From: an uncultured Caulobacterales bacterium | Lineage (GTDB): Bacteria > Pseudomonadota > Alphaproteobacteria > Caulobacterales > Maricaulaceae | Reading direction: 5' to 3' | Assembly: GCA_964410285.1 (NCBI GenBank) | Contig: CAYPFR010000006.1 | Coordinates: 18,401-82,400, forward strand | Length of the DNA stretch: 64,000 bases | Shown here: positions 7,056 through 62,616 of the stretch, piece after piece | How the letters are laid out: each line of letters begins with the position of its first letter | Position numbering within the stretch: the stretch's first letter is position 1 | Position numbers and translations under genes: made by a program | The notes under the pieces: generated by a model | Databases searched by the model: none | Seen by the model: only the letters and a program-made list of their open reading frames with translations | What the model was told of the DNA's origin: nothing

Positions 7056-8771
7056 CTATAGCGTGCCAGCTTTCAACAGCTTCGCCGCATGATCAGCCGC
7101 CCGGGCGGAGAAGGCCATATATCCAAGCGACGGATTTTGGCAGCCCGCAGAGGTCATGAAGGACGCATCCGTGATAAACAGATTAGGGACATCATGACTC
7201 TGGTTCCATTTATTGAGCACAGACGTTTTCGGGTCATGCCCCATGCGGGCCGTGCCCATTTCGTGAATCCCGTTACCGGGCGGGGTTAGCGTCATATTTT
7301 CAGGATCATCACCGCCGATATTTGTGCATCCCGCCGCCGCGAGCATAGCCCGGCCATCAAGGGCCGCTTGGCGCATAAGTTTTTTCTCATTATCGCCGTG
7401 CTTGGCATCAAGGATCGGCACGGGGAAACCCCACGCATCGGTCTTGGTTGGATGCAGACGAACATGATTATCATAATTGGGCAAAATTTCGCCAAAGCCC
7501 GTGATTGAAATCACCCATGGGCCCGGCTTGCGGTTCGCCGCTTTGTAATCGGCGCCAACGCCAGCCGCATTTGACGATCCTTTCCACTGCCCCCGGTAAG
7601 CCCGCCCCTGATACCCAAATCCGCGAATAAATCCGTCGCCATCTTCTGTATGATTTCGGAAACGCGGAATATAAATTCCGTTGGGCCGGCGGCCAAAGTG
7701 ATGCTTATCTTCATTCCCCGGTAAAGTGCCGTAAGACGAGCCGCCAATAATATGGTCCATCAAATTATGTCCAAGTTGGCCCGAGCTATTAGCAAGGCCC
7801 GTCTTGAAACTCTCTGATTTCGAATTGAGCAAAATCATAGAACTCGGGATCGCGCCTGCATTGAGAAAGACGAGGCGCGCCGTCATTGTCTTGGCGGTTT
7901 TGGTCTGGGTATTGACCGTACGCACGCCGCTTACGCGGTTTGTCTCAGGGTCATAGTCAAGCCCATGCACAGCAGTATCATTTATAAGGGTAAGATTACC
8001 GGTCCGCCGCGCGGCCGGGAGCGTTGCTGAATTGGAACTGAAATACGCGCCAAAAGAACAGCCACGGAAGCAATGATCACGTGCCAGACAGCGCCCTCGG
8101 CCAAGCTCTAACTGCTCTTGTGTTGGCGCGGTAAGATTGGCAACTCGCCCGGGAATGACCTTGCGGCCGGGGAATTTTGCCTCGACATGATTTTTGAAGT
8201 CTTCTTCTGCGCAGGTCAGATCATGCGGCGGTTGGAACACGCTATCTGGCAAAATTTCTAGGCCTTCCTTTGAGCCGGAAATTCCTGCAAATTTTTCGAC
8301 ATAATCATACCACGGCGCAATATCGTCATAGCGCACAGGCCAATCGATGCCGTGGCCGTCTTTTTTATTGGCCTCAAAATCAATATTAGAAAAGCGGTAG
8401 CTTTGCCGTCCCCACATAATCGAGCGACCGCCCGTATGATAGCCGCGCCGCCAGCGATAGCTTTGGCCCTCGGGGACGATATAGGGATGCTCTGCATCTT
8501 TGACCCAGAACTGTTTTGTATAGCTGTGGAAGGCATAGACCTCCGATTGGATAGGATAGTCTTTCAGGTCTTGAGGAGACTTCCAATTAAGCTGTTCATG
8601 CTCCCATGGATCTTCCATATCTGTATAGTCTTCGACGGGGTCAATATCGCGCCCGCGTTCAATCACGCAAACCTTAAGGCCCCGCTCGCACATCTCTTTG
8701 GCCACCCAGCCGCCGGACATACCGGAGCCAACAACGATTACATCAAAATCATAACTCTTATTATCGGTCAT
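7056..8771 (-). CDS. GMC-family FAD-dependent oxidoreductase (paralog 2)
   Basis: DVIVVGSGMSGGWVAKEM and HEMGTARMG...NLFITDASFM; collinear and clearly similar to paralog 1. I chose ATG 8771 (MTDNKSY), which makes a TAATG overlap with the small-subunit gene. ATG 8783 is the alternative. Confidence 0.9.
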   Translation of the reverse strand: MTDNKSYDFDVIVVGSGMSGGWVAKEMCERGLKVCVIERGRDIDPVEDYTDMEDPWEHEQLNWKSPQDLKDYPIQSEVYAFHSYTKQFWVKDAEHPYIVPEGQSYRWRRGYHTGGRSIMWGRQSYRFSNIDFEANKKDGHGIDWPVRYDDIAPWYDYVEKFAGISGSKEGLEILPDSVFQPPHDLTCAEEDFKNHVEAKFPGRKVIPGRVANLTAPTQEQLELGRGRCLARDHCFRGCSFGAYFSSNSATLPAARRTGNLTLINDTAVHGLDYDPETNRVSGVRTVNTQTKTAKTMTARLVFLNAGAIPSSMILLNSKSESFKTGLANSSGQLGHNLMDHIIGGSSYGTLPGNEDKHHFGRRPNGIYIPRFRNHTEDGDGFIRGFGYQGRAYRGQWKGSSNAAGVGADYKAANRKPGPWVISITGFGEILPNYDNHVRLHPTKTDAWGFPVPILDAKHGDNEKKLMRQAALDGRAMLAAAGCTNIGGDDPENMTLTPPGNGIHEMGTARMGHDPKTSVLNKWNQSHDVPNLFITDASFMTSAGCQNPSLGYMAFSARAADHAAKLLKAGTL

Positions 8772-41160: not shown

Positions 41161-42390
41161 ATGCTGACGTCATCGAAAACACTTAAATTGGCCGCTGGCC
41201 TTTTAATTGGCGCTGGGTTTGCTCCCATCGCTGCGGCGGGCGGCTACGGCGCGCCGGCTTATTCACCGGACCTTCTGCCGTCCAATCCTGCGCCGGGCAT
41301 GTGTTATGCACGCGTTGAGATTCCAGCCCAGTACACAACAACAACAGAAGATGTTCTTGTTGAAGAAGGTTACACAACTGTTGAAGTGACACAGCCAAAG
41401 CTCGCAACCCGCCAGCAACAGGTTCTCGTCAAAGAAGCTAGCGTTCGCTACGAGGTACGCCAGCCATCATTTCGCTCTGTCTCCGAGAAAATCATGACGC
41501 GCCCAGCCTATGATAAGCTGACGGTTACGCCGCCAAGTTTCTCGACTGTGACGGAAAATATGGCGTCTTCGGCCCCTCGCCTCGTTTGGAAAAAGGGTAA
41601 CCCTGCCAACCTTGTGCGCCAGGGATACAAAATTCATTCAACGGCGGATGCCGGCCAATACGGTCAAGGCTATAGCTCGACAACACAATACGGCCAATCC
41701 GGCGGCTCGGCGCAATGCGGCGCGACCTGCGAAATTTGGTGTCTTGTCGAAGAACCCGGTGAGAGCGTAAGCTTTCAGCGTAAAGTCGTTTCAAATCCTG
41801 CCCGCGTTCAGCGTCAAACAGTTCCGGCCCGCTATCAGACGATTATGAAACAAGTTGTTTCCGATCCGGGCGGCGTGCGCGAGATCCCCGTTCCCGCGCA
41901 GCACCGGACGGTTACTGTTGAAGAAATCGTACAGCCTGGCGGCGAACGCCAAGTCACTGTGCCGCCTAAATACGGCAAGGTTGAGAAAAAACAGCTTGTC
42001 TCCGCCGAGCGTTATGAGTGGCGTCAAGTGGCCTGTAAAACAGGTACGCTTCCGTCATATCGCCCCATGGCAAATACACCGACAATGGTCACCCCGTCGA
42101 AGATCACCTCTGCACCTATGAGCTATCAGCAGCCAATGGCAGCGCCGGTTCAGTCGTCCGCTTATGGCGTCGCGCCGACTGTCGGCGAAGTTCTGGCAAA
42201 TGGCGGCCGCGCGGTCTGCATTAGTGGACAGGACTGTACAGACATTATCCAAAGCTCGCCTATTCACGGCGGCGGCGCAGCACATAGCGGCGGCGCTTCT
42301 GGCGGCGGATATTACTCTCACAGCGGATCTCATGGCACGGCGAATGGCGGGTCTTGGGGTTCACATCACGCTTATGAGTCAGGTCACTAA
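41161..42390 (+). CDS. secreted repeat protein with a Gly/Ser/His-rich tail (uncharacterised)
   Basis: AGAGG lies 7 nt before ATG 41161. Signal peptide MLTSSKTLKLAAGLLIGAGFAPIAAAGG. Seven units of about 17-18 aa of the type xPxx(Y/F)xTVxxxVxxxx sit in two Cys/Trp-bracketed halves. Tail: HGGGAAHSGGASGGGYYSHSGSHGTANGGSWGSHHAYESGH. Confidence 0.7.
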   Translation: MLTSSKTLKLAAGLLIGAGFAPIAAAGGYGAPAYSPDLLPSNPAPGMCYARVEIPAQYTTTTEDVLVEEGYTTVEVTQPKLATRQQQVLVKEASVRYEVRQPSFRSVSEKIMTRPAYDKLTVTPPSFSTVTENMASSAPRLVWKKGNPANLVRQGYKIHSTADAGQYGQGYSSTTQYGQSGGSAQCGATCEIWCLVEEPGESVSFQRKVVSNPARVQRQTVPARYQTIMKQVVSDPGGVREIPVPAQHRTVTVEEIVQPGGERQVTVPPKYGKVEKKQLVSAERYEWRQVACKTGTLPSYRPMANTPTMVTPSKITSAPMSYQQPMAAPVQSSAYGVAPTVGEVLANGGRAVCISGQDCTDIIQSSPIHGGGAAHSGGASGGGYYSHSGSHGTANGGSWGSHHAYESGH

Positions 42391-48175: not shown

Positions 48176-48211
48176 CCCCGAAAAGAAAAACCCTCCCGCA
48201 GAGCGAGAGGG
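48176..48211 (-). terminator. rho-independent terminator of the 519-aa-ORF repeat-protein gene
   Basis: The minus-strand RNA CCCUCUCGC-UCU-GCGGGAGGG forms a 9-bp stem with one G-U pair, followed by UUUUUCUUUUC. Confidence 0.7.
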
Positions 48212-48238
48212 CTGAAGATTTTAGTGATTTTGGCAATA

Positions 48239-49756
48239 TTAACAGCCGCGCGGCAGGCCTGAACCATAGCGGGACTTACCAGCGCCGCCGCAGCCGCCGC
48301 CAAATCCGGCGTGACCAAATCCAGCGTGACCAAAACCGCCTTGACCAAAGCCCGCGCCGCCAAATCCAACAGGACCGCCTACAAAGCCGCCGGTATTGAA
48401 GCCGCCGTGGTGGAAGCCGCCGTGATGCGCAGCGCCGTGGAACCCATTAACGCGCACAGGATACGGCACGTTGACCGTATAAGGCACGGGCGTTGGAACA
48501 GGATAGCGCACGTAAACAACAGGGCGCACTACGCGTGTGTAGTTTACTTGCGGGGCCGGCGCAGGGCGCGCAACAGTATAGCATCCCAGAACCTTGGCAC
48601 CGCTGGTGCTGTCAACGCTCATTGGGCAGCTTGTCGGTGTTAGGCTTTCCGACGGGCTGAGGCTTGGAAGTGTGTAATTCGGTGAAAGCGGCGCGCTATC
48701 GCCCGTTGAGAATGGCACAACGGTGATGTTCGTGCTGCTATAGCTGTTTGAGCTATTATCCGTATAGGTCGCGGATACAGACCCTGAGCCTGAATTGCTC
48801 ACGCTAAGGTCACCAGAACCGCCTGCATAGCCGCCGTTACCCGCAGAACCGCCAGAAAAACGCGAGCTAAGTGAGGGAACCGTCCCATCGGAGCTCATGA
48901 CATATCCATTTCCGCCTTCATAGCTGACGCTGCCGCCATTTGATGCGGCATAATTAGAGCTCCCGCCCGTGGAGATCGTGTAGCTCCCAGATCCATTGCT
49001 TGTCACTGTCGTGCTGGGCGCGGAACCAACAGAGCTGGAATAGCTACCGCCCGAAGACATGCCGCCAACGGAGCTGGAATAACTTGGCGAAGATGCGCCC
49101 ATGGACGATGTGCCATTGCCTGATCCGCTTATAACGGTTGTTGGGTTGGAATAGCTTGGCGCACCGTAGCTTGGCGCGCTGTAGGTAGGAGCCGCATAGC
49201 TAGGGGCGGAATAAGTTGGAGCGCTATATGACGGCGCGGCGTAGCTCGGCGCTGCGTAACTCGGCGCAGAATAGCTGGGCGCGCTGTAGGACGGCGCAGA
49301 GCTGTAAGTTGCCGCAGGCGCTGCGCTGTAGCTTGTCGTGGGAGCAGAGCTATAAGTCGTAATGCTTGGCGCTGAGCTATAAGTTGTTGAGCCGCTGTAG
49401 CTTGACGTGGCCGGAGAAAATGAGCTCGAAAATGAGCCCGATGTATCAAGGCATGTGCCGTCTGACTGGGCGGTTGTCCCGGAGGGGCAATTTGCGGGCG
49501 CCATGGAAGAATGCCTCATTGAAGAGTTCAGGGCAGAATTCATCGAACTCGAAGACATAACGGACCCACCGCTATAGCTTGTTCCACCAGCCAAGTGAGA
49601 GCTCATGTGGCTTCCGCCGTGATGCAAAGTTGACCCCGAATGGGACGTTGCGCCGTGATGGCTCGAGCAAGCCGTGCCGCAATTTGCATAAGCTGTGCTT
49701 GAAAGTAATGCCGCGGCTCCCACGGTTGTTACTGTTTTGAGTGTTAGGGAAAACAT
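48239..49756 (-). CDS. secreted Ser/Tyr/Gly-rich pentapeptide-repeat protein with a Pro/Val module and Gly/Phe/His tail (uncharacterised)
   Basis: ATG 49756 is preceded by AGGTGGG and gives the signal peptide MFSLTLKTVTTVGAAALLSSTAYA. Ten consecutive AP(S/T)Y(S/A/G) units. C-terminal RPAPAPQVNYTRVVRPVVYVRYPVPTPVPYTVNVPYPV, then GGF/GFG/His repeats. Confidence 0.7.
   Translation of the reverse strand: MFSLTLKTVTTVGAAALLSSTAYANCGTACSSHHGATSHSGSTLHHGGSHMSSHLAGGTSYSGGSVMSSSSMNSALNSSMRHSSMAPANCPSGTTAQSDGTCLDTSGSFSSSFSPATSSYSGSTTYSSAPSITTYSSAPTTSYSAAPAATYSSAPSYSAPSYSAPSYAAPSYAAPSYSAPTYSAPSYAAPTYSAPSYGAPSYSNPTTVISGSGNGTSSMGASSPSYSSSVGGMSSGGSYSSSVGSAPSTTVTSNGSGSYTISTGGSSNYAASNGGSVSYEGGNGYVMSSDGTVPSLSSRFSGGSAGNGGYAGGSGDLSVSNSGSGSVSATYTDNSSNSYSSTNITVVPFSTGDSAPLSPNYTLPSLSPSESLTPTSCPMSVDSTSGAKVLGCYTVARPAPAPQVNYTRVVRPVVYVRYPVPTPVPYTVNVPYPVRVNGFHGAAHHGGFHHGGFNTGGFVGGPVGFGGAGFGQGGFGHAGFGHAGFGGGCGGAGKSRYGSGLPRGC
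49148..49297 (-). repeat. in-frame 15-nt tandem repeats encoding 10 x AP(S/T)Y(S/A/G)
   Basis: Residues 168-217 of the track ORF read APSYS APSYS APSYA APSYA APSYS APTYS APSYA APTYS APSYG APSYS. Codons differ between the units. Confidence 0.9.
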
Positions 49757-49890
49757 ATCTACCCACCTTTTTGATATATGTCGGCGTCGCACCCACATGT
49801 GTTACATTTAGGGACGAGACTGCAATTCAGGGGCCAAATCAAAGAGATTCAACTTCAGAGGGAATAGGCCCGGAACATTCCCCTTTTCTG

Positions 49891-49906
49891 TTAACCTTTT
49901 GTTAAC
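49891..49906. promoter_or_regulatory. TTAA-N7-TTAAC (canonical CtrA-type full site)
   Basis: ttaaccttttgttaac read directly. It lies 135-150 nt upstream of ATG 49756, between the upstream gene's terminator and that start. Confidence 0.4.
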
Positions 49907-49921
49907 ACTTTTCACGAGGGC

Positions 49922-49944
49922 AAAAAAGAACGGGCCGCAGCCCG
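49922..49944 (-). terminator. rho-independent terminator of the 378-aa repeat-protein gene
   Basis: The minus-strand RNA CGGGC-UGCG-GCCCG is followed by UUCUUUUUUG. Confidence 0.7.
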
Positions 49945-49975
49945 CTCTGTTGTTTTTTTAGCCGGGGCTACGCGC

Positions 49976-51112
49976 CTAGAAAGTCCAGCCTGCGGAAGGG
50001 CCATGCGGTAACATTGGCCGCGGCGCAGCATGTCCAAAACCACCGCCAAACTGGTTCCCTAGCTGCGGACGAAAGGCAGGGCCGCCCGCAAAGGGCGCAC
50101 CAACAGGACGGCATCCGGCAGGTATTTGTCCGCCGCGAACTTTAACAGGGACATCAACGAAGTAAGGAACAGGCGTTGGGACGGCTTGCGGGACGCCCAC
50201 AACCGGGCGCACAACGCGCACTTGCGGCTGCGGGGCAGGTGCTTGGCGGCGGCAAACAACTGATGTGGCCACAGTATCGCCAAACATCGTCAGGCCAGAG
50301 ACTTGCTCCCAATAGCCGCCAGTCGAATCAACAGGCGTCGTCGGATTGGACGTCGAGCTTGTGATAGAAGGGCTGCTGACGACCGGGCTACTCACAAGGG
50401 AACTGGCCGTAGAGTAACTTGTGCTGGGCATTGACGACAGGTTCATGCTGCCGAATCTGTTTGACGAATAACTTGCGCCAGCAAGCGCATTAGCCGCATT
50501 GATCGGACTGCGATCCACAAAAGACGTCGGGACATGCGCAATACCGGGGGTAAGCGTATTGTCGCCGTAAACTCTCGGGATGAATTTGGACGGGTCATAT
50601 CCGCCGCCAATTGCGACTATGCGCGGCGCGGATGGGACTGGGGCACTGAAGGACTGGGCGCTAAACCTTGGGGCGCTAAAAGTTGGAGCGCTGAACGTTG
50701 GCGCATTGAAAATTGGCGCAGGCTGCGGCGTGTTAAAGGTAACATCGACGGGCGTACCAATATCTGTCCGGCAATATGCGGTTGAGGTCGGGTGGCACCC
50801 TGATGTGAAGGACGACGGAAAATCTGTGACATCGGCGCTGGGCATCATCCCGTGCAGGCGGGTAATAGACACATTTGGCGCGCGGTGATAATTCACACTG
50901 CGCAGAAAGCCCATAGGCTGATTAATATTGACGCTTAGCGGGTCAAAAGTGGCAGCAGACCCCGGATTGACAGTGGTCCCAAGCTGGCAATTTGGGCTGG
51001 CAGCGCCATATCCACAGCTGCCCGCCATGGCCGGCGTTGCCGCTGTTATGAGTCCAAGACTTGAGACAGCCAAAAGTGTTGTCTTTAGCGCAATAGTTTT
51101 CATGTGACGCAT
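49976..51112 (-). CDS. secreted pentapeptide-repeat protein, paralog of 48239..49756 (uncharacterised)
   Basis: GGGAG lies 9 nt before ATG 51112. Signal peptide ...LITAATPAMA. Repeats APIFN APTFS APTFS APRFS AQSFS APVPS. C-terminal APAPQPQVRVVRPVVGVPQAVPTPVPYFVDVPVKV is collinear with the paralog. Gly/Phe/Pro tail. Confidence 0.7.
   Translation of the reverse strand: MRHMKTIALKTTLLAVSSLGLITAATPAMAGSCGYGAASPNCQLGTTVNPGSAATFDPLSVNINQPMGFLRSVNYHRAPNVSITRLHGMMPSADVTDFPSSFTSGCHPTSTAYCRTDIGTPVDVTFNTPQPAPIFNAPTFSAPTFSAPRFSAQSFSAPVPSAPRIVAIGGGYDPSKFIPRVYGDNTLTPGIAHVPTSFVDRSPINAANALAGASYSSNRFGSMNLSSMPSTSYSTASSLVSSPVVSSPSITSSTSNPTTPVDSTGGYWEQVSGLTMFGDTVATSVVCRRQAPAPQPQVRVVRPVVGVPQAVPTPVPYFVDVPVKVRGGQIPAGCRPVGAPFAGGPAFRPQLGNQFGGGFGHAAPRPMLPHGPSAGWTF
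50630..50719 (-). repeat. in-frame 15-nt tandem repeats encoding 6 x A(P/Q)xFS-type units
   Basis: Residues 132-161 of the 378-aa protein. Confidence 0.85.
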
Positions 51113-51193
51113 ATCCGCGTTCTCCCACGTTGTGGCCGCCTCCCGGCGCGCCTGATAATCCTGTTCGGAGAAAAGTAGGAGGAAATCGCCTGA

Positions 51194-51397
51194 CTAAAAG
51201 TCGTAAGCAATACCGCCGCGTTCCCAATCGCCGTAGCGCGTGGGCTCTTCTCCCTTTGGACCGAGGATTTCATTTGGACGATCAGCCAGCTTTGCCTTTG
51301 CTGCCTCTCTACGCGCGAGCGCTTCTGCCAGTGCCCGCTTCGCAGCCGGCGTTAGCGTCTTGCCCGGTGCAGCATTAGGGAGAGGGTCTTGTGACAT
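51194..51397 (-). CDS. DUF1674 (SDHAF4-like) protein
   Basis: C-terminal EPTRYGDWERGGIAYDF signature. The track start is TTG; ATG 51397 gives MSQDPLPN.... Confidence 0.8.
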   Translation of the reverse strand: MSQDPLPNAAPGKTLTPAAKRALAEALARREAAKAKLADRPNEILGPKGEEPTRYGDWERGGIAYDF

Positions 51398-51575
51398 GCC
51401 CAACCATAGCGCTACTACGTAAAATCGTCAAACGGGAAACCCGAATGCCCAATGCAGGCCGCTAGACTTTGGGTCCGGCTCGCGCTGCCCTGCTCTGTTA
51501 CAAAGGCTTGCATAATATTTGATTAAACGCGCGTTTGCGGTTTGTTAGGAAAGGTTAAGAGGTATATCGGGAGGG

Positions 51576-53235: not shown

Positions 53236-54771
53236 ATGCGATTCGCACGGCCCATAGACATTAAATGCCCCAATTACGGGCGATCCCTCCGGTCTATCTT
53301 GGAGGCTGCGGTGGTCTGCACGGCAGCAACACTCCTCCTTGAGAGTGCAGCCTTGGCCCAAACCTCCGTTATCACGCCAAGGCAGCAGACCCCAAAAGCC
53401 TCGCCTGCCGCAAATTTGTCGGGCGTTCCCAAATTCCCTCGCGCCAAGCTTGGGGCCGCGCCGCAATCTGTCGCCGCATCTGGCAAGGCCGAAAATCTTA
53501 CCTCAAGCCTGCGCCGGCGCACAAAGGGCAGCCGCGACCGCGCCGCTGTGCCAGACGGGCTTTATTTGAAACGCGCAGCCTCAGGGCTGGGCGAGATAAC
53601 GGCTCTGACCTCTGATAATGAGGGGCAACTCTTTGCCCTGAATAAGGCCGGATCAATTTTTGTTCTTTATGACCGCGCGATGGACGGGCGTATGGATACG
53701 CAGCGCGTATTAACCGCTGGGCTTGACGCGCCAAGCGGCCTCGCGTTTGCGGGCGGCTTTCTTTATGTCGCAGACCAGAGCGCTATCTGGCAGATCGATA
53801 TAGCCAGCGGAGCGCGGAAAGTGTTCGTTCCCCTTACCAATATAAAGGCAGGCCCGCAGCGCCCGCTTATCTATTATCAAAACAAGCTGGTTTTGGGCCT
53901 GAGCGACCAAGAGATCGCGGGAGCTGCCGGAAAATCGAAAGTTCTTTCAATTGATATGGGAACTCGGCGCGCCAATCTGCTGACTGAAATACCGGGCGCG
54001 CCGCTACGGGCGCTCTCTATTGGCGGGGGGCAAATATGGGCCGCTGCTGGGGAAAATCTTTGGCCGCTTGGGGTGCAAAATGCGAAGGGGTTTCAAACGC
54101 GTTACCCGCTTGAAACCGGCGCGCCGGCATTGGCCGTTTTGCTCCCCTCCAAGGAGATAGCCTATCCGCCAGATTGGCCCGCCGCCCTGCGTGAGCACAT
54201 CATCGCGGTGCAGGGTCCGGCCGGCCGGCCGAGTGCGGCGTCCAGCGGCGGCAATAATGTCGTCAGCTTGCCGACTCTTTTTGGCGCGCCGGGTCCCGAA
54301 CTCCTTCAGCTTGTGGGAGGATTTACAGGTAAAAGCGGGCAAAGCGCATGGGCAGCCCCCTCGGCTATCTTAATGGAGCCGCGCGGGCTTTTCATTGCCG
54401 ACCGTCTGGGCGGCAGCCTTTATCGCCTGAGCGCAGATAATCGCCCAGTGCCTCGGGCAAAAAAGCCTCTCCTGCCGCCCATCCCCGCGCCGGTAAAACA
54501 AAAGCCGTCGCGCGCGCCCAATGATACGCCGGCCATGGCCGGTAGCTCTCTTCTTGAAGCCAGCCATCTTGAGACGGCCAGCACACTTAGCGCCGGCTCG
54601 CTATTGAAAAAGAGACATGAAGAAAAAGAACAAAGTAAAGCGGAGGAAAAAAAGCGGGCCGAAGCAGAAAAGCTTGAGGCCAAAGCTGAGGCGCGCGAGG
54701 CGCGGGAGCGCCAGCGCAAAGAGTCAATTGCGCGTCTTTTGAAGAAAAATCACGCCGCAAGCGGAAACTAG
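53236..54771 (+). CDS. secreted beta-propeller-like protein (sorbosone/glucose dehydrogenase-like blades) with a Lys/Glu-rich coiled-coil tail
   Basis: Hydrophobic N-terminus ending AALAQ. Blade-like segments (LDAPSGLAFAGGFLYVADQSAIWQID; GLFIADRLGGSLYRL). Tail KKRHEEKEQSKAEEKKRAEAEKLEAKAEAREARERQRKE. Function uncertain. Confidence 0.55.
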   Translation: MRFARPIDIKCPNYGRSLRSILEAAVVCTAATLLLESAALAQTSVITPRQQTPKASPAANLSGVPKFPRAKLGAAPQSVAASGKAENLTSSLRRRTKGSRDRAAVPDGLYLKRAASGLGEITALTSDNEGQLFALNKAGSIFVLYDRAMDGRMDTQRVLTAGLDAPSGLAFAGGFLYVADQSAIWQIDIASGARKVFVPLTNIKAGPQRPLIYYQNKLVLGLSDQEIAGAAGKSKVLSIDMGTRRANLLTEIPGAPLRALSIGGGQIWAAAGENLWPLGVQNAKGFQTRYPLETGAPALAVLLPSKEIAYPPDWPAALREHIIAVQGPAGRPSAASSGGNNVVSLPTLFGAPGPELLQLVGGFTGKSGQSAWAAPSAILMEPRGLFIADRLGGSLYRLSADNRPVPRAKKPLLPPIPAPVKQKPSRAPNDTPAMAGSSLLEASHLETASTLSAGSLLKKRHEEKEQSKAEEKKRAEAEKLEAKAEAREARERQRKESIARLLKKNHAASGN

Positions 54772-59955: not shown

Positions 59956-60435
59956 CTAGGCCGCAGCCGCCGCCGCAGATTGCGTGATCAGTATATAAAG
60001 ACTTTGCGCGTCTGGGGCTGTACGCAGGCGCTCCCGCGTTTCCTCACGGCGAAGGCGGCGGGAGAATTGCGCCAAGGCCCGCAAATGCGCCCCGCCTGCA
60101 TCTGACGGCGCCACTAACAAAACCGCCAGATCAACCGGGACATCATCCACAGCCTCATAATCTATTGCCTCGTCAAGGCGCGCGAAGACGGCATAGACAC
60201 GATCAAGCCCGTCGATCCGCGCATGCGGCAATGCCACACCCTGTCCGACGCCCGTCGAGCCGAGACGCTCGCGCTCAAGTGAAGCCTGAACAATATCACG
60301 GGCGCTGACGCCGCTATCTTTGAAGACGGGCAAATTTTCCAGCTTTTCAGCCATGAGCTGAAGTAATTGCTTCTTACTACTTGCGTGCGCATTCGGCATT
60401 ACGCCGTCGACGTTAAAATGAATATCACGTGTCAT
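59956..60435 (-). CDS. ptsN: PTS EIIA-Ntr nitrogen regulatory protein
   Basis: GSTGVGQGVALPHARIDGL (phosphorylatable His). The internal ATG at 60435 gives a typical length of about 159 aa. Confidence 0.85.
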   Translation of the reverse strand: MTRDIHFNVDGVMPNAHASSKKQLLQLMAEKLENLPVFKDSGVSARDIVQASLERERLGSTGVGQGVALPHARIDGLDRVYAVFARLDEAIDYEAVDDVPVDLAVLLVAPSDAGGAHLRALAQFSRRLRREETRERLRTAPDAQSLYILITQSAAAAAA

Positions 60436-60522
60436 GCAGACTAGTCTTTTACTGTGGGGTAGCCCTGCTGCAAAATAGCAGCGAAGGTTGCTCATCCCAA
60501 ATTCCAGCGCCTCTTAAACGGA

Positions 60523-61113
60523 TTAGGCCTTGGGGTCAATCCACCCAATATTGCCATCTGGCCGCTTAAAAACGATATTAATTCGCCCGTGTTTTACATT
60601 ATTAAAAACTACCACGCCATTATCGGCCAATCCTAATTCCAAGGCTGCCATACCCGGCGTCATCGTCCGCAAAGGCTGGCTCGCCTCGGAGATAATCATT
60701 GGCTCTTGCGGCGGGGCGGAGCCTGCGTTCTCATCGTCATCAAGATCACTATCATCAACAGGATTTTTCATAATGAACATATTAAAGGCTTCCGCCTTGG
60801 CAGCTGTTTTGACATCTGGGTGGTGATCTTTCAGTCGGCGCTTATAGCGCCGCAGGCGTTTTTCCATATGCTCCAGCGCTTCATCGGTCGCCCCGTAGGC
60901 TTCGGCCGCATTTCCTGTAGCTTCCATGGTTGCGCCGCTGGGCAGATGTACAGAGCAAACTGTCCTAAATCCAGAGCCCTCCCGCGAGACAGAGACATGG
61001 GCCTCCCCCTCTCTGTGTATATATTTGTCAATCATCTCGTCGAAACGTTCATTTATTCTGGCATGTAGCGCGGGTGAAACATCGATATTTTTAGAGACGA
61101 TTTGGATTTGCAT
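60523..61113 (-). CDS. hpf: ribosome hibernation promoting factor (long form)
   Basis: MQIQIVSKNIDVSPALHARINERF plus the C-terminal dimerisation domain ...VVVFNNVKHGRINIVFKRPDGNIGWIDP. Confidence 0.9.
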   Translation of the reverse strand: MQIQIVSKNIDVSPALHARINERFDEMIDKYIHREGEAHVSVSREGSGFRTVCSVHLPSGATMEATGNAAEAYGATDEALEHMEKRLRRYKRRLKDHHPDVKTAAKAEAFNMFIMKNPVDDSDLDDDENAGSAPPQEPMIISEASQPLRTMTPGMAALELGLADNGVVVFNNVKHGRINIVFKRPDGNIGWIDPKA

Positions 61114-61800: not shown

Positions 61801-62616
61801 CTAGGGCGCCCCATAGTCGGGTTCATGCTGCCACGCGCGAATTCGGGCGCGGGCCTTGTCGGCGCTGGAGAGATCAATTTCTGCGATGATGATAGCCGGC
61901 GAGTCTGTTTCAGATGCGGCCAGCACCTCACCCCACGGTCCAATAATCAAACTATGGCCATATGTTTTACGGCCGTCCGCATGCTCTCCGCCCTGCGCAG
62001 GGGCGAGGACAAAACTGCCAGTCTCTATCGCGCGCGCGCGCAAGAGCGTCTCCCAATGCGCCTGCCCTGTGGGGCGGGTGAAAGCAGCGGGCACGGTCAT
62101 AATATGCGCGCCGGCTTGGGCATAGCGGCGGTACAACCCGGCAAAGCGTAGATCATAACAGATGGACAGCCCCAGCACGGCTTCGCCCGCTTGCGCCGTG
62201 ACGGCTTTGCTACCGCGGTCATACACGCGGCTCTCGGTCCAGCTTTCAGTGTCCGAAACCTGCGCGTCAAACAAGTGTATCTTGTCATACACCGCGAGAA
62301 TTTCCCCTGTTGGTCCGAAAAGAAAGCTCCGGTTCACGGCGCGCTGGGGCGCAGATAAAATTGCCAGCGACCCAATCAAGAGATGCACCTTAAGCTCGGC
62401 GGCAAGGCGGGCGTAAAACTGTACGCCTTTATCGGCGTCTTGGGAGGCAATAGCCGCGAAAAGCGCCGCAGAATCGCGCTGCAATAAATGTGTCATTTCG
62501 GGCGTGGCAATCAGGCTTGCACCCGCGCTCGCTGCGCGCCGGATAAGGGCCTCGCTCTCGCGAAGATTTTCGGAAACATCAATGCCGGAGCAAAGCTGGA
62601 CGGCCGCGATTTTCAT
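61801..62616 (-). CDS. carbon-nitrogen hydrolase (nitrilase superfamily, Nit-like)
   Basis: Glu-Lys-Cys triad contexts ATPEM, YDKIHLFD and GLSICYDLRF. Confidence 0.85.
   Translation of the reverse strand: MKIAAVQLCSGIDVSENLRESEALIRRAASAGASLIATPEMTHLLQRDSAALFAAIASQDADKGVQFYARLAAELKVHLLIGSLAILSAPQRAVNRSFLFGPTGEILAVYDKIHLFDAQVSDTESWTESRVYDRGSKAVTAQAGEAVLGLSICYDLRFAGLYRRYAQAGAHIMTVPAAFTRPTGQAHWETLLRARAIETGSFVLAPAQGGEHADGRKTYGHSLIIGPWGEVLAASETDSPAIIIAEIDLSSADKARARIRAWQHEPDYGAP

Follow-up and report, generated by a model that had tools for sequence, protein, structure and literature searches.

We focused our attention on two neighbouring genes, here called A and B, located on the minus strand of a 64-kb stretch of DNA from an uncultured Caulobacterales bacterium (contig CAYPFR010000006.1, positions 18,401 to 82,400; the whole stretch is hereafter referred to as the window). 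As proposed in the first-pass annotation of this DNA, the two genes are adjacent, and each was found to have its own Shine-Dalgarno sequence, signal peptide and intrinsic terminator (Table 1). The existence of A was likewise borne out, but its start had probably been placed 42 nucleotides (nt) too far upstream: the open reading frame (ORF) as listed, 48239-49798, encodes 519 amino acids (aa), and its ATG at 49798 lacks a ribosome-binding site. As AAGGTGGG precedes the in-frame ATG at 49756, and as every close orthologue begins with MFS(R/L)TL, this second ATG is probably the true start. The main new result of our analysis is that A carries a conserved promoter, predicted to be of the sigma-54 type, while B does not.

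Table 1. Features of the A and B genes, with positions in the window.
Feature	Position	Strand	Remark
ORF A, 505 aa	48239..49756	(-)	likely start
CPSGTTAQSDGTC disulfide-loop module of A (aa 90-102)	49451..49489	(-)	same module three times in the C family of other genera
Ten AP(S/T)Y(S/A/G) pentapeptides of A (aa 154-203)	49148..49297	(-)	lineage-specific, variable copy number
Ser/Gly/Thr-rich tract of A (aa 204-341)	48734..49147	(-)	conserved within the sub-lineage
A-family core (aa 342-436), ..VVPFSTGD..ESLTPTSCPMSVDSTSGAKVLGCYTVARPAPAPQVNYTRVVRPVVYVRYPVPTPVPYTVNVPYPVRV	48449..48733	(-)	
Gly/Phe/His tail of A (aa 437-505), end C..SRYG......C	48242..48448	(-)	family-wide, only the final Cys-RYG-Cys is conserved
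Ribosome-binding site of A, AAGGTGGG	49762..49769	(-)	context GAAAGGTGGGT.ATG conserved across the A family
Putative sigma-54 type -24/-12 promoter of A, TGGCCC-CTGAA-TTGCA (TGGCCCCTGAATTGCA)	49821..49836	(-)	64 nt before ATG 49756
Inverted repeat ATTC-N11-GAAT (ATTCCCTCTGAAGTTGAAT), contains GANTC (GAATC)	49847..49865	(-)	candidate regulator site
CtrA-type box TTAAC-AAAAGG-TTAAC (TTAA-N7-TTAAC)	49890..49906	(-)	only such site in the 64-kb window; 0.39 expected by chance
Intrinsic terminator after A, stem-loop and T-run	48189..48213	(-)	
ORF B, 378 aa	49976..51112	(-)	216 homologues at E<=1e-3, all 'hypothetical', no Pfam domain
B pentapeptide array APIFN APTFS APTFS APRFS AQSFS APVPS (aa 132-161)	50630..50719	(-)	
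B C-terminal module (aa 260-325), VDSTGGYWEQVSGLTMFGDTVATSVVCRRQAPAPQPQVRVVRPVVGVPQAVPTPVPYFVDVPVKV	50138..50335	(-)	beta-hairpin, then Pro/Val segment
Ribosome-binding site of B, GTGGGAGA	51121..51128	(-)	GTGGGAG(A/T) motif conserved upstream of B in most loci
Intrinsic terminator after B, stem-loop and T-run	49927..49948	(-)	

A pattern-based scan, with one genome per species, returned 59 loci from Hellea, Litorimonas, Algimonas, 'uncultured Caulobacterales' and metagenome-assembled genomes (MAGs) labelled Hyphomonadaceae or Maricaulaceae, and members from Fretibacter were found through protein search. Moreover, an exhaustive hidden Markov model search with the B family against 1.84e9 representative proteins yielded only 104 clusters at 50% identity, the most divergent of which come from Robiginitomaculum and Maricaulaceae MAGs. 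Apart from a few related MAGs, these sources make up the marine, stalked and dimorphic family Robiginitomaculaceae (PMC11556079). A and B define two previously unannotated families, which were seen in this analysis only in Robiginitomaculaceae and a few Maricaulaceae/Caulobacterales MAGs.

Regarding gene order, strict criteria placed an A gene immediately after B, in the same orientation, in 55 of 66 loci. The usual arrangement is DUF1674 - B - terminator - A, with a convergent pyrF next to A; in most loci, B and A are separated by a GC hairpin and T-run that resemble a terminator. The pair persists in the divergent Robiginitomaculum and Maricaulaceae loci, and most of the remaining 11 cases represent contig ends, an assembly gap (locus L005, inside the repeats) or overlaps in ORF calling. 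The true exception is formed by one sub-clade of Hellea (L004, L013, L014, L022, L023 and L053), in which A is not downstream of B: A stayed beside pyrF, and DUF1674 and B moved elsewhere. On a single contig of Hellea balneolensis (AUAC01000008.1), for instance, B (L014) and A (L067, 5001-5633) lie approximately 95 kb apart by record coordinates. The DUF1674 (SDHAF4-like) gene, at 51113-51403 in the window, is directly upstream of B in every locus checked, with a gap of approximately 80-140 nt, and B may be co-transcribed with it.

We then examined the upstream regions of both genes. A sequence of the type TGGCAC-N5-TTGC(T/A) is present between the B terminator and the A start in almost every locus. 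When 11 bases of the sigma-54 consensus were scored (GG-N10-GC within TGGCAC-N5-TTGCW), at least 10 of them were matched in 47 distinct A upstream regions, versus 1.3% of random 300-nt windows from the same loci, and the A gene of H. balneolensis, which is unlinked from B, has a perfect 11/11 promoter sequence (TGGCACAGCTGTTGCA). Upstream of B, on the other hand, the scores for such an element were at background only, across loci. In addition, a palindrome, ATTC(G/A/C)C-N7-G(C/T/G)GAAT (ATTC-N9-13-GAAT), is conserved 10-13 nt upstream of the -24 element; at least 7 of its 8 positions were matched in 34 of the 47 A upstream regions, versus a background of 4.4%, and GANTC, usually as part of the palindrome, occurs in 31 of the 47 (background 2.1%). 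Counts of the sigma-54 site and of the palindrome in the window alone were not significant, and the evidence for both comes from their conservation across loci. The TTAA-N7-TTAA box, perfect in the window, recurs at the same position only in L002, L007 and L008, the three closest of the orthologous loci examined, and the other loci have only TTAAC half-sites.

The 5' leader of B is also conserved, with a GCACCG...CGGTGC hairpin in L046 (5924-6009), L029 (5843-5928) and 10 other Litorimonas/Algimonas loci. A CUCCCAC stretch in this leader has two possible pairing partners, a GGAG located upstream and the ribosome-binding site GUGGGAG, and could in this way act as a translational switch; RNAalifold found no double-sided compensatory change in the leader, and an Rfam scan of the region in the window gave no match.

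Within the loci fetched, the only other genes with the same kind of promoter, although with a non-canonical -24 element, were those of a third family, here called C. C proteins are exported, have approximately 300 aa, and contain three CP[AS]GTTAQ.DGTC disulfide-loop modules, of which A carries one copy; their signal peptide is followed by ..SRYGNVYDYESGRNCGQAC, and they end in YLPIRK. In the majority of the loci from Hellea, Litorimonas and Algimonas (L003 5151-6053 (-), L046 2856-3755 (-) and approximately 40 others), the C gene is encoded on the strand opposite to B, at a distance of 2-3 kb from it; the window has no C gene. Its upstream region contains a strongly conserved GTAA-N7-TTAACC, then TGGTC(C/T)-N5-TTGCA (GG-N10-GC), and then the conserved leader ATGT(T/A)TCAAAATGGGAGGCTC. 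The presence of the A-type module in C, together with the GG-N10-GC promoter-like element of the C genes, suggests that A and C may form a small co-regulated set of modular exported proteins.

As both proteins are of unusual composition, their coding status was evaluated by Nei-Gojobori counts of nonsynonymous (pN) and synonymous (pS) differences against the three closest orthologues. The A core showed a pN of 0.12 against a pS of approximately 0.7, and the C-terminal module of B a pN of 0.14-0.17 against a pS of approximately 0.6. Constraint was weaker in the repeats and tail of A (pN 0.28-0.41; for the pentapeptide array, pN 0.34-0.41 versus pS 0.75-0.83), and the central low-complexity tract of B is nearly unconstrained (pN 0.43-0.59). 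The reading frames stay open in all close orthologues. Altogether, the comparisons clearly indicate that A and B are genuine genes under purifying selection, and not non-coding low-complexity DNA. The numbers of repeat units reported earlier were also recovered, namely ten AP(S/T)Y(S/A/G) units in A and six of AP.F(S/N) type in B, as was the statement that their codons differ: the period-15 DNA arrays are only 75-83% matched, which indicates that the repeats are not fresh products of slippage.

Export was judged by inspection of the N-termini for a basic n-region, a hydrophobic h-region and small residues at -3/-1 (A-x-A). In A, the signal peptide (aa 1-24) reads MFSLTLKTVTTVGAAALLSSTAYA|N, with predicted cleavage at TAYA|NCGTAC; in B (aa 1-30), it reads MRHMKTIALKTTLLAVSSLGLITAATPAMA|G, with predicted cleavage at PAMA|GSCGYGAASPNC. 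The A-x-A residues of B (A28 and A30) are invariant in an 18-member alignment and conserved in at least 90% of a 120-member alignment. The lipobox L-[AS]-[GA]-C was not matched in either protein, as the window sequence reads AYA-N-C in A and AMA-GS-C in B; moreover, some A-family members have N at -1 or no Cys at all (e.g., L017 and L025). The number of Cys residues is even in both mature proteins (eight in A, six in B), and for all of them except C287 and C334 of B a possible partner is located 4-16 residues away, as would be expected for oxidised extracytoplasmic proteins. The signal peptides and the closely paired cysteines support the earlier proposal of an extracellular or envelope location, with A and B predicted to be exported by a Sec-type route and processed by signal peptidase I.

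Protein A is composed of the signal peptide, a C26-C30 pair, the CPSGTTAQSDGTC module, the Ser/Tyr repeats, the Ser/Gly/Thr tract, the core and the Gly/Phe/His tail, which contains the C489-C505 pair. The mature protein has 23.7% Ser and 15.8% Gly. The Ser/Gly/Thr tract and the Gly/Phe/His tail described earlier are both present, and the tract shows 71-77% aa identity, with a pN of approximately 0.2, to L002, L007 and L008. Most A proteins are nevertheless much simpler: they have approximately 190-230 aa and consist of a signal peptide, an A(G/N)C....C motif, a short Ser-rich linker and the core, which in these short forms reads YGTGSIS..Y...F.G....GLG.NESLQ.T.CPV.V....G..VLGCYNVVKPVPQTTYYRVVRPV(V/I)YVRYPVP.AVPY..C.....SRYG......C. 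In the core alignment, the L, E, C, G-C-Y, VV.P, V and C positions are invariant, and a core profile search retrieved 380 family members, whereas full-length A as a query retrieved few. The expanded sub-lineage comprises the window, L002, L007, L008 and proteins P0121 and P0122, and the pentapeptides, much of the Ser/Gly/Thr tract and the tail are insertions found in this sub-lineage alone. Repeat number varies even here, with 10 units in the window, 7 in P0121 and 5 of TPSYS/APSYS type in P0122. As most members lack the repeats and tail, these cannot be the core function of the family, and the pentapeptide-and-tail architecture that the first-pass annotation had attributed to the pair holds for this lineage only. 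In the A orthologue of L005, a masked run of N (approximately 7900-8010) lies inside the Ser/Tyr repeats; these repeats are evidently a place where assemblies break, and A-family lengths taken from MAGs may be unreliable.

Protein B begins with the signal peptide and a C33-C42 loop, which opens an N block (aa 31-126) that also includes C106-C114; the AP.F. pentapeptides, a GGGYDPSKF..PGIAHVPTS.VDRSP block, a variable low-complexity tract, the C-terminal module and a tail ending in GWTF follow. In the alignments of the B family, hypervariable linkers, rich in Pro/Ala or in Ser, alternate with five conserved blocks: the start, A-x-A|GGCG..NC; the N block with its GGC.P.ST.YC loop; GGGYDPSKF.PR.YGDNTFTPGIAHVPTS.VDRSP; the C-terminal module; and the terminal RWTY/GWTF. 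The pentapeptide region is variable and Pro/Ala-rich across the family, with only 11-26 of 34 codons alignable to close orthologues.

AlphaFold2 (AF2) was run on both proteins, with alignments of 116-120 sequences, and gave an overall predicted local distance difference test (pLDDT) score of 56-58. In B (overall 55.9), the sole confident part is a hairpin formed by strands 266-277 and 280-290 (pLDDT of approximately 89), and the Pro/Val segment of the module showed no regular secondary structure. The repeat region (aa 132-161) had no assigned secondary structure and no beta-helix, with block-mean pLDDT of 44-52, and the A core contained two short strands (pLDDT 65-79). These models, with a confident hairpin in B and little else, are consistent with disorder plus a strand module, and A and B are predicted to be largely disordered and stapled by short-range disulfides. 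A transmembrane beta-hairpin, or an outer-membrane protein beta-signal formed by the B hairpin and the WT(F/Y) terminus, was also considered and dropped, as the strands lack clear amphipathic alternation.

The two proteins had been described as paralogues sharing one architecture with a common Pro/Val module. BLASTP of A against B aligned the repeats and VPTPVPY only, the latter segment being weakly significant (E 3e-5). When the family profiles were compared with hhalign, a match of 95.6% probability (E 1.3e-8) was obtained over 38 columns, which confirms the shared module. The matched columns comprise P.P, (R/Q)VV(R/N)PV(V/I).V..PVPxPVP, the following Cys and RYG, and a Cys-bearing two-strand segment precedes them in both proteins. 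B has three further conserved blocks without counterpart in A. Common descent is therefore upheld for the C-terminal module, of approximately 40 columns, but not for the architecture as a whole. A third exported protein (41161-42390 (+), 409 aa), with Y..(T/V)TE.V.V..P-type repeats (YTTTTEDVLVEEGYTTVEVTQP...), had been grouped with the pair on account of its Gly/Ser/His tail; the tail is similar in composition to those of A and B, but the protein is unrelated (hhalign 0.8% against the B family) and had no Pfam or NCBIfam match. A sigma-54-like match at 41208-41223 falls inside its signal-peptide codons and is probably due to chance.

The earlier statement that this combination belongs to no named family held throughout. 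Neither A nor B matched any Pfam or NCBIfam family at E<=1, and several of their homologues gave nothing significant in the same libraries, the pentapeptide-type match in one distant B homologue having an E of 0.39. Profile searches of the PDB gave nothing credible, and Foldseek with the AF2 models found no PDB match at E<1. Outside these families, database matches were restricted to the repeats, in P0130 (a tick protein, extensin-like Pfam repeat) and P0136 (APSYS repeats, source unstated). A and B resemble the pentapeptide-repeat proteins (PF00805, PF13599 and PF01469) in their tandem five-residue periodicity; however, there is no significant match, there are only 6-10 units of another pattern which is not conserved in the families, and the modelled B repeats form no beta-helix.

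The explanation that we tentatively favour, at somewhat less than an even chance, is that A and B are timed, co-assembling envelope proteins of a polar structure. In this proposal, sigma-54 RNA polymerase, together with an enhancer-binding protein, would switch A on at a set point of development, and B would be made from a promoter of another type. Once exported, A and B would associate via the shared strand module, rich in Val, Ile, Tyr and Pro, and the assembly would be part of an envelope-associated polar structure, while the variable Ser/Gly/Thr/Tyr/Pro tracts would serve as extended linkers, free to lengthen or shorten. The dependence on sigma-54 in vivo, the timing, the association of A with B and the polar or structural role are what we infer from these observations.

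The proposal draws on what is known from Caulobacter, where FlbD and TacA are the only bacterial enhancer-binding proteins retaining the sigma-54-contacting GAFTGA motif, FlbD being dedicated to the flagellum and TacA to the swarmer-to-stalked transition (PMC10274813). Two classes of RpoN promoters are distinguished in Caulobacter, one flagellar and the other linked to the swarmer-to-stalked transition, the second including spmX, staR, a lytic transglycosylase and several hypothetical proteins (PMC4287350, S15). The A promoter resembles this regulon, as a -24/-12 element of the TGGCAC-N5-TTGC type lies upstream of A in a dimorphic member of the Caulobacterales, and as the TacA-type class includes envelope enzymes and several uncharacterised proteins. 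It differs in that just 10-13 nt separate the A palindrome from the -24 element that follows it, and in that no A or B orthologue was found outside Robiginitomaculaceae and related MAGs. The pair also resembles curli CsgA/CsgB, in that adjacent genes encode secreted proteins with a common assembly module, an arrangement suggestive of a major-plus-minor or nucleator logic; unlike curli, there are no curlin repeats, no Pfam match and no csgEFG-type neighbours, and only approximately 40 columns are homologous, the rest being disordered or unrelated.

Several observations weigh against this explanation. No flagellar, stalk, pilus or holdfast genes were found near the pair in the window or in the loci examined. 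In L064 and L066, which are the most divergent loci, the match to sigma-54 is less good, and the palindrome lies unusually near the -24 element for an enhancer site and could instead be a repressor site. With an overall pLDDT of 56-58, the idea of strand assembly draws on sequence character only. Finally, the adjacency of B and A may be inherited synteny, and a Hellea sub-clade separates the pair.

This last point leads to a rather unlikely alternative, in which A and B have no part in development and are general envelope 'filler' or stress proteins, sigma-54 responds to nutrient or envelope cues, and adjacency is simply inherited. The neighbours are indeed housekeeping genes (pyrF, a short-chain dehydrogenase/reductase, DUF1674 and a His phosphatase), the Hellea sub-clade has separated A and B without losing either, and sigma-54 regulons are broadly tied to the cell exterior and to nitrogen (title of PMC3162934; PMC4287350). 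Nevertheless, the shared module and the near-universal adjacency argue for coupling, and a CtrA-type box and GANTC sites are typical of cell-cycle promoters.

Equally deserving of consideration, and also on the unlikely side, is the possibility that A and B, together with C, replace HfaA/HfaD/HfaE as holdfast anchors or adhesins, as insoluble multimers that tether or form a polar adhesin. Chepkwony et al. (10.1101/523142) found no hfa orthologues in Robiginitomaculum antarcticum and H. balneolensis and suggested a different mode of anchoring, and the A and B families are restricted to the clade reported to lack hfa. The bacteria of this clade live attached to algae, and the regulation of A looks developmental. 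Like A and B, the Caulobacter HfaA, HfaD and HfaE proteins are Sec-exported, Cys-containing envelope proteins of stalked Caulobacterales; they form SDS-resistant multimers and are thought to polymerise via beta-rich segments, comparable to the strand-module assembly proposed here. However, the argument is purely circumstantial. A and B matched no curated family and show no sequence or profile likeness to one, and HfaA, HfaD or HfaE membership was not found in the Pfam and NCBIfam scans at E<=1, the Hfa content of these libraries not having been checked. In addition, no CsgG/HfaB-like exporter or hfs gene was present among the annotated neighbours in the window and in loci L001-L004 and L064-L067, and A has a putative sigma-54 promoter, which sets it apart from the Hfa proteins. 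The more elaborate form of this idea is slightly harder to credit and must be seen as improbable: B-A and C would together constitute the missing holdfast-anchoring or polar-adhesin system, a non-orthologous replacement of HfaA/B/D/E made of disordered, disulfide-stapled proteins polymerising via the Pro/Val strand module, under a developmental sigma-54/CtrA timer.

A flagellar role seems to us doubtful. Swarmer cells of the genera that carry A and B are flagellated, and the two proteins could be periplasmic or outer components associated with the flagellum, A being a late product of the FlbD class, e.g., of a clade-specific basal disk, sheath or collar. Sigma-54 and FlbD drive middle and late flagellar genes in Caulobacter (PMC3930126, PMC4287350), and the CtrA-type box of the window lineage would fit the flagellar hierarchy. 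However, no flagellar gene was present in any of the 67 loci, B lacks a sigma-54 promoter, and known structural parts of the flagellum do not share the predominant disorder and the high length variability of these proteins.

The suggestion of the first-pass annotation that Tyr-rich repeats and His-rich tails would serve cross-linking or metal binding, which would make A and B adhesive proteins comparable to those of mussels or cuticles, now appears very improbable. Mature A does have 33 Tyr and 15 His, and the only non-family matches to its repeats are P0130 and P0136, taken as arthropod proteins, which have the same APSYS/APSYSAPSY units. However, this likeness is compositional, with nothing shared outside the repeats. 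Repeats and tails occur in a small sub-lineage only and are missing from the majority of family members, and the copy number of the repeats differs among close relatives, so that these features cannot define the function of the family; at most, they would be a lineage-specific embellishment. An adhesive role as such is possible.

Lastly, that A and B are spurious ORFs in low-complexity, GC-rich DNA, as their extreme composition and the presence of other long ORFs overlapping genes in other frames might suggest, can practically be dismissed in view of hundreds of intact orthologues, pN far below pS, and conserved signal peptides, ribosome-binding sites, terminators and promoter.

Two further stretches of the window may be mentioned. 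At 59956-61113 (-), the gene of the sigma-54 modulation protein/ribosome hibernation factor, hpf, stands next to ptsN (EIIA-Ntr), an arrangement that recalls rpoN operons; here, however, a CN-hydrolase gene (61801-62616) takes the place of rpoN upstream of them. Moreover, 53236-54771 (+) holds an ORF of 511 aa with no Pfam match, and at the corresponding position of L001, L002 and L065 a gene of similar size, with no Pfam match or a faint NHL match, lies beside an HNH endonuclease.

Overall, the B-A pair is a family-restricted two-gene unit with a clear regulatory signature, and it represents a good experimental candidate rather than a solved case. It also illustrates how striking repeats may be an ornament of one lineage, set around a small conserved module that is then easily missed. 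Robiginitomaculaceae are common colonisers of seaweed surfaces and are being established as models for comparative work on stalked dimorphic bacteria. For these organisms, in which the classic Hfa anchors are reported missing, A and B offer a short candidate list for adhesin anchoring or polar envelope building, the more so as A lies behind a highly conserved promoter of the predicted sigma-54 type, which drives flagellar and stalk programmes in Caulobacter. This promoter, together with the candidate regulator-site motif, provides a ready tool for defining the sigma-54 regulon of the Robiginitomaculaceae.

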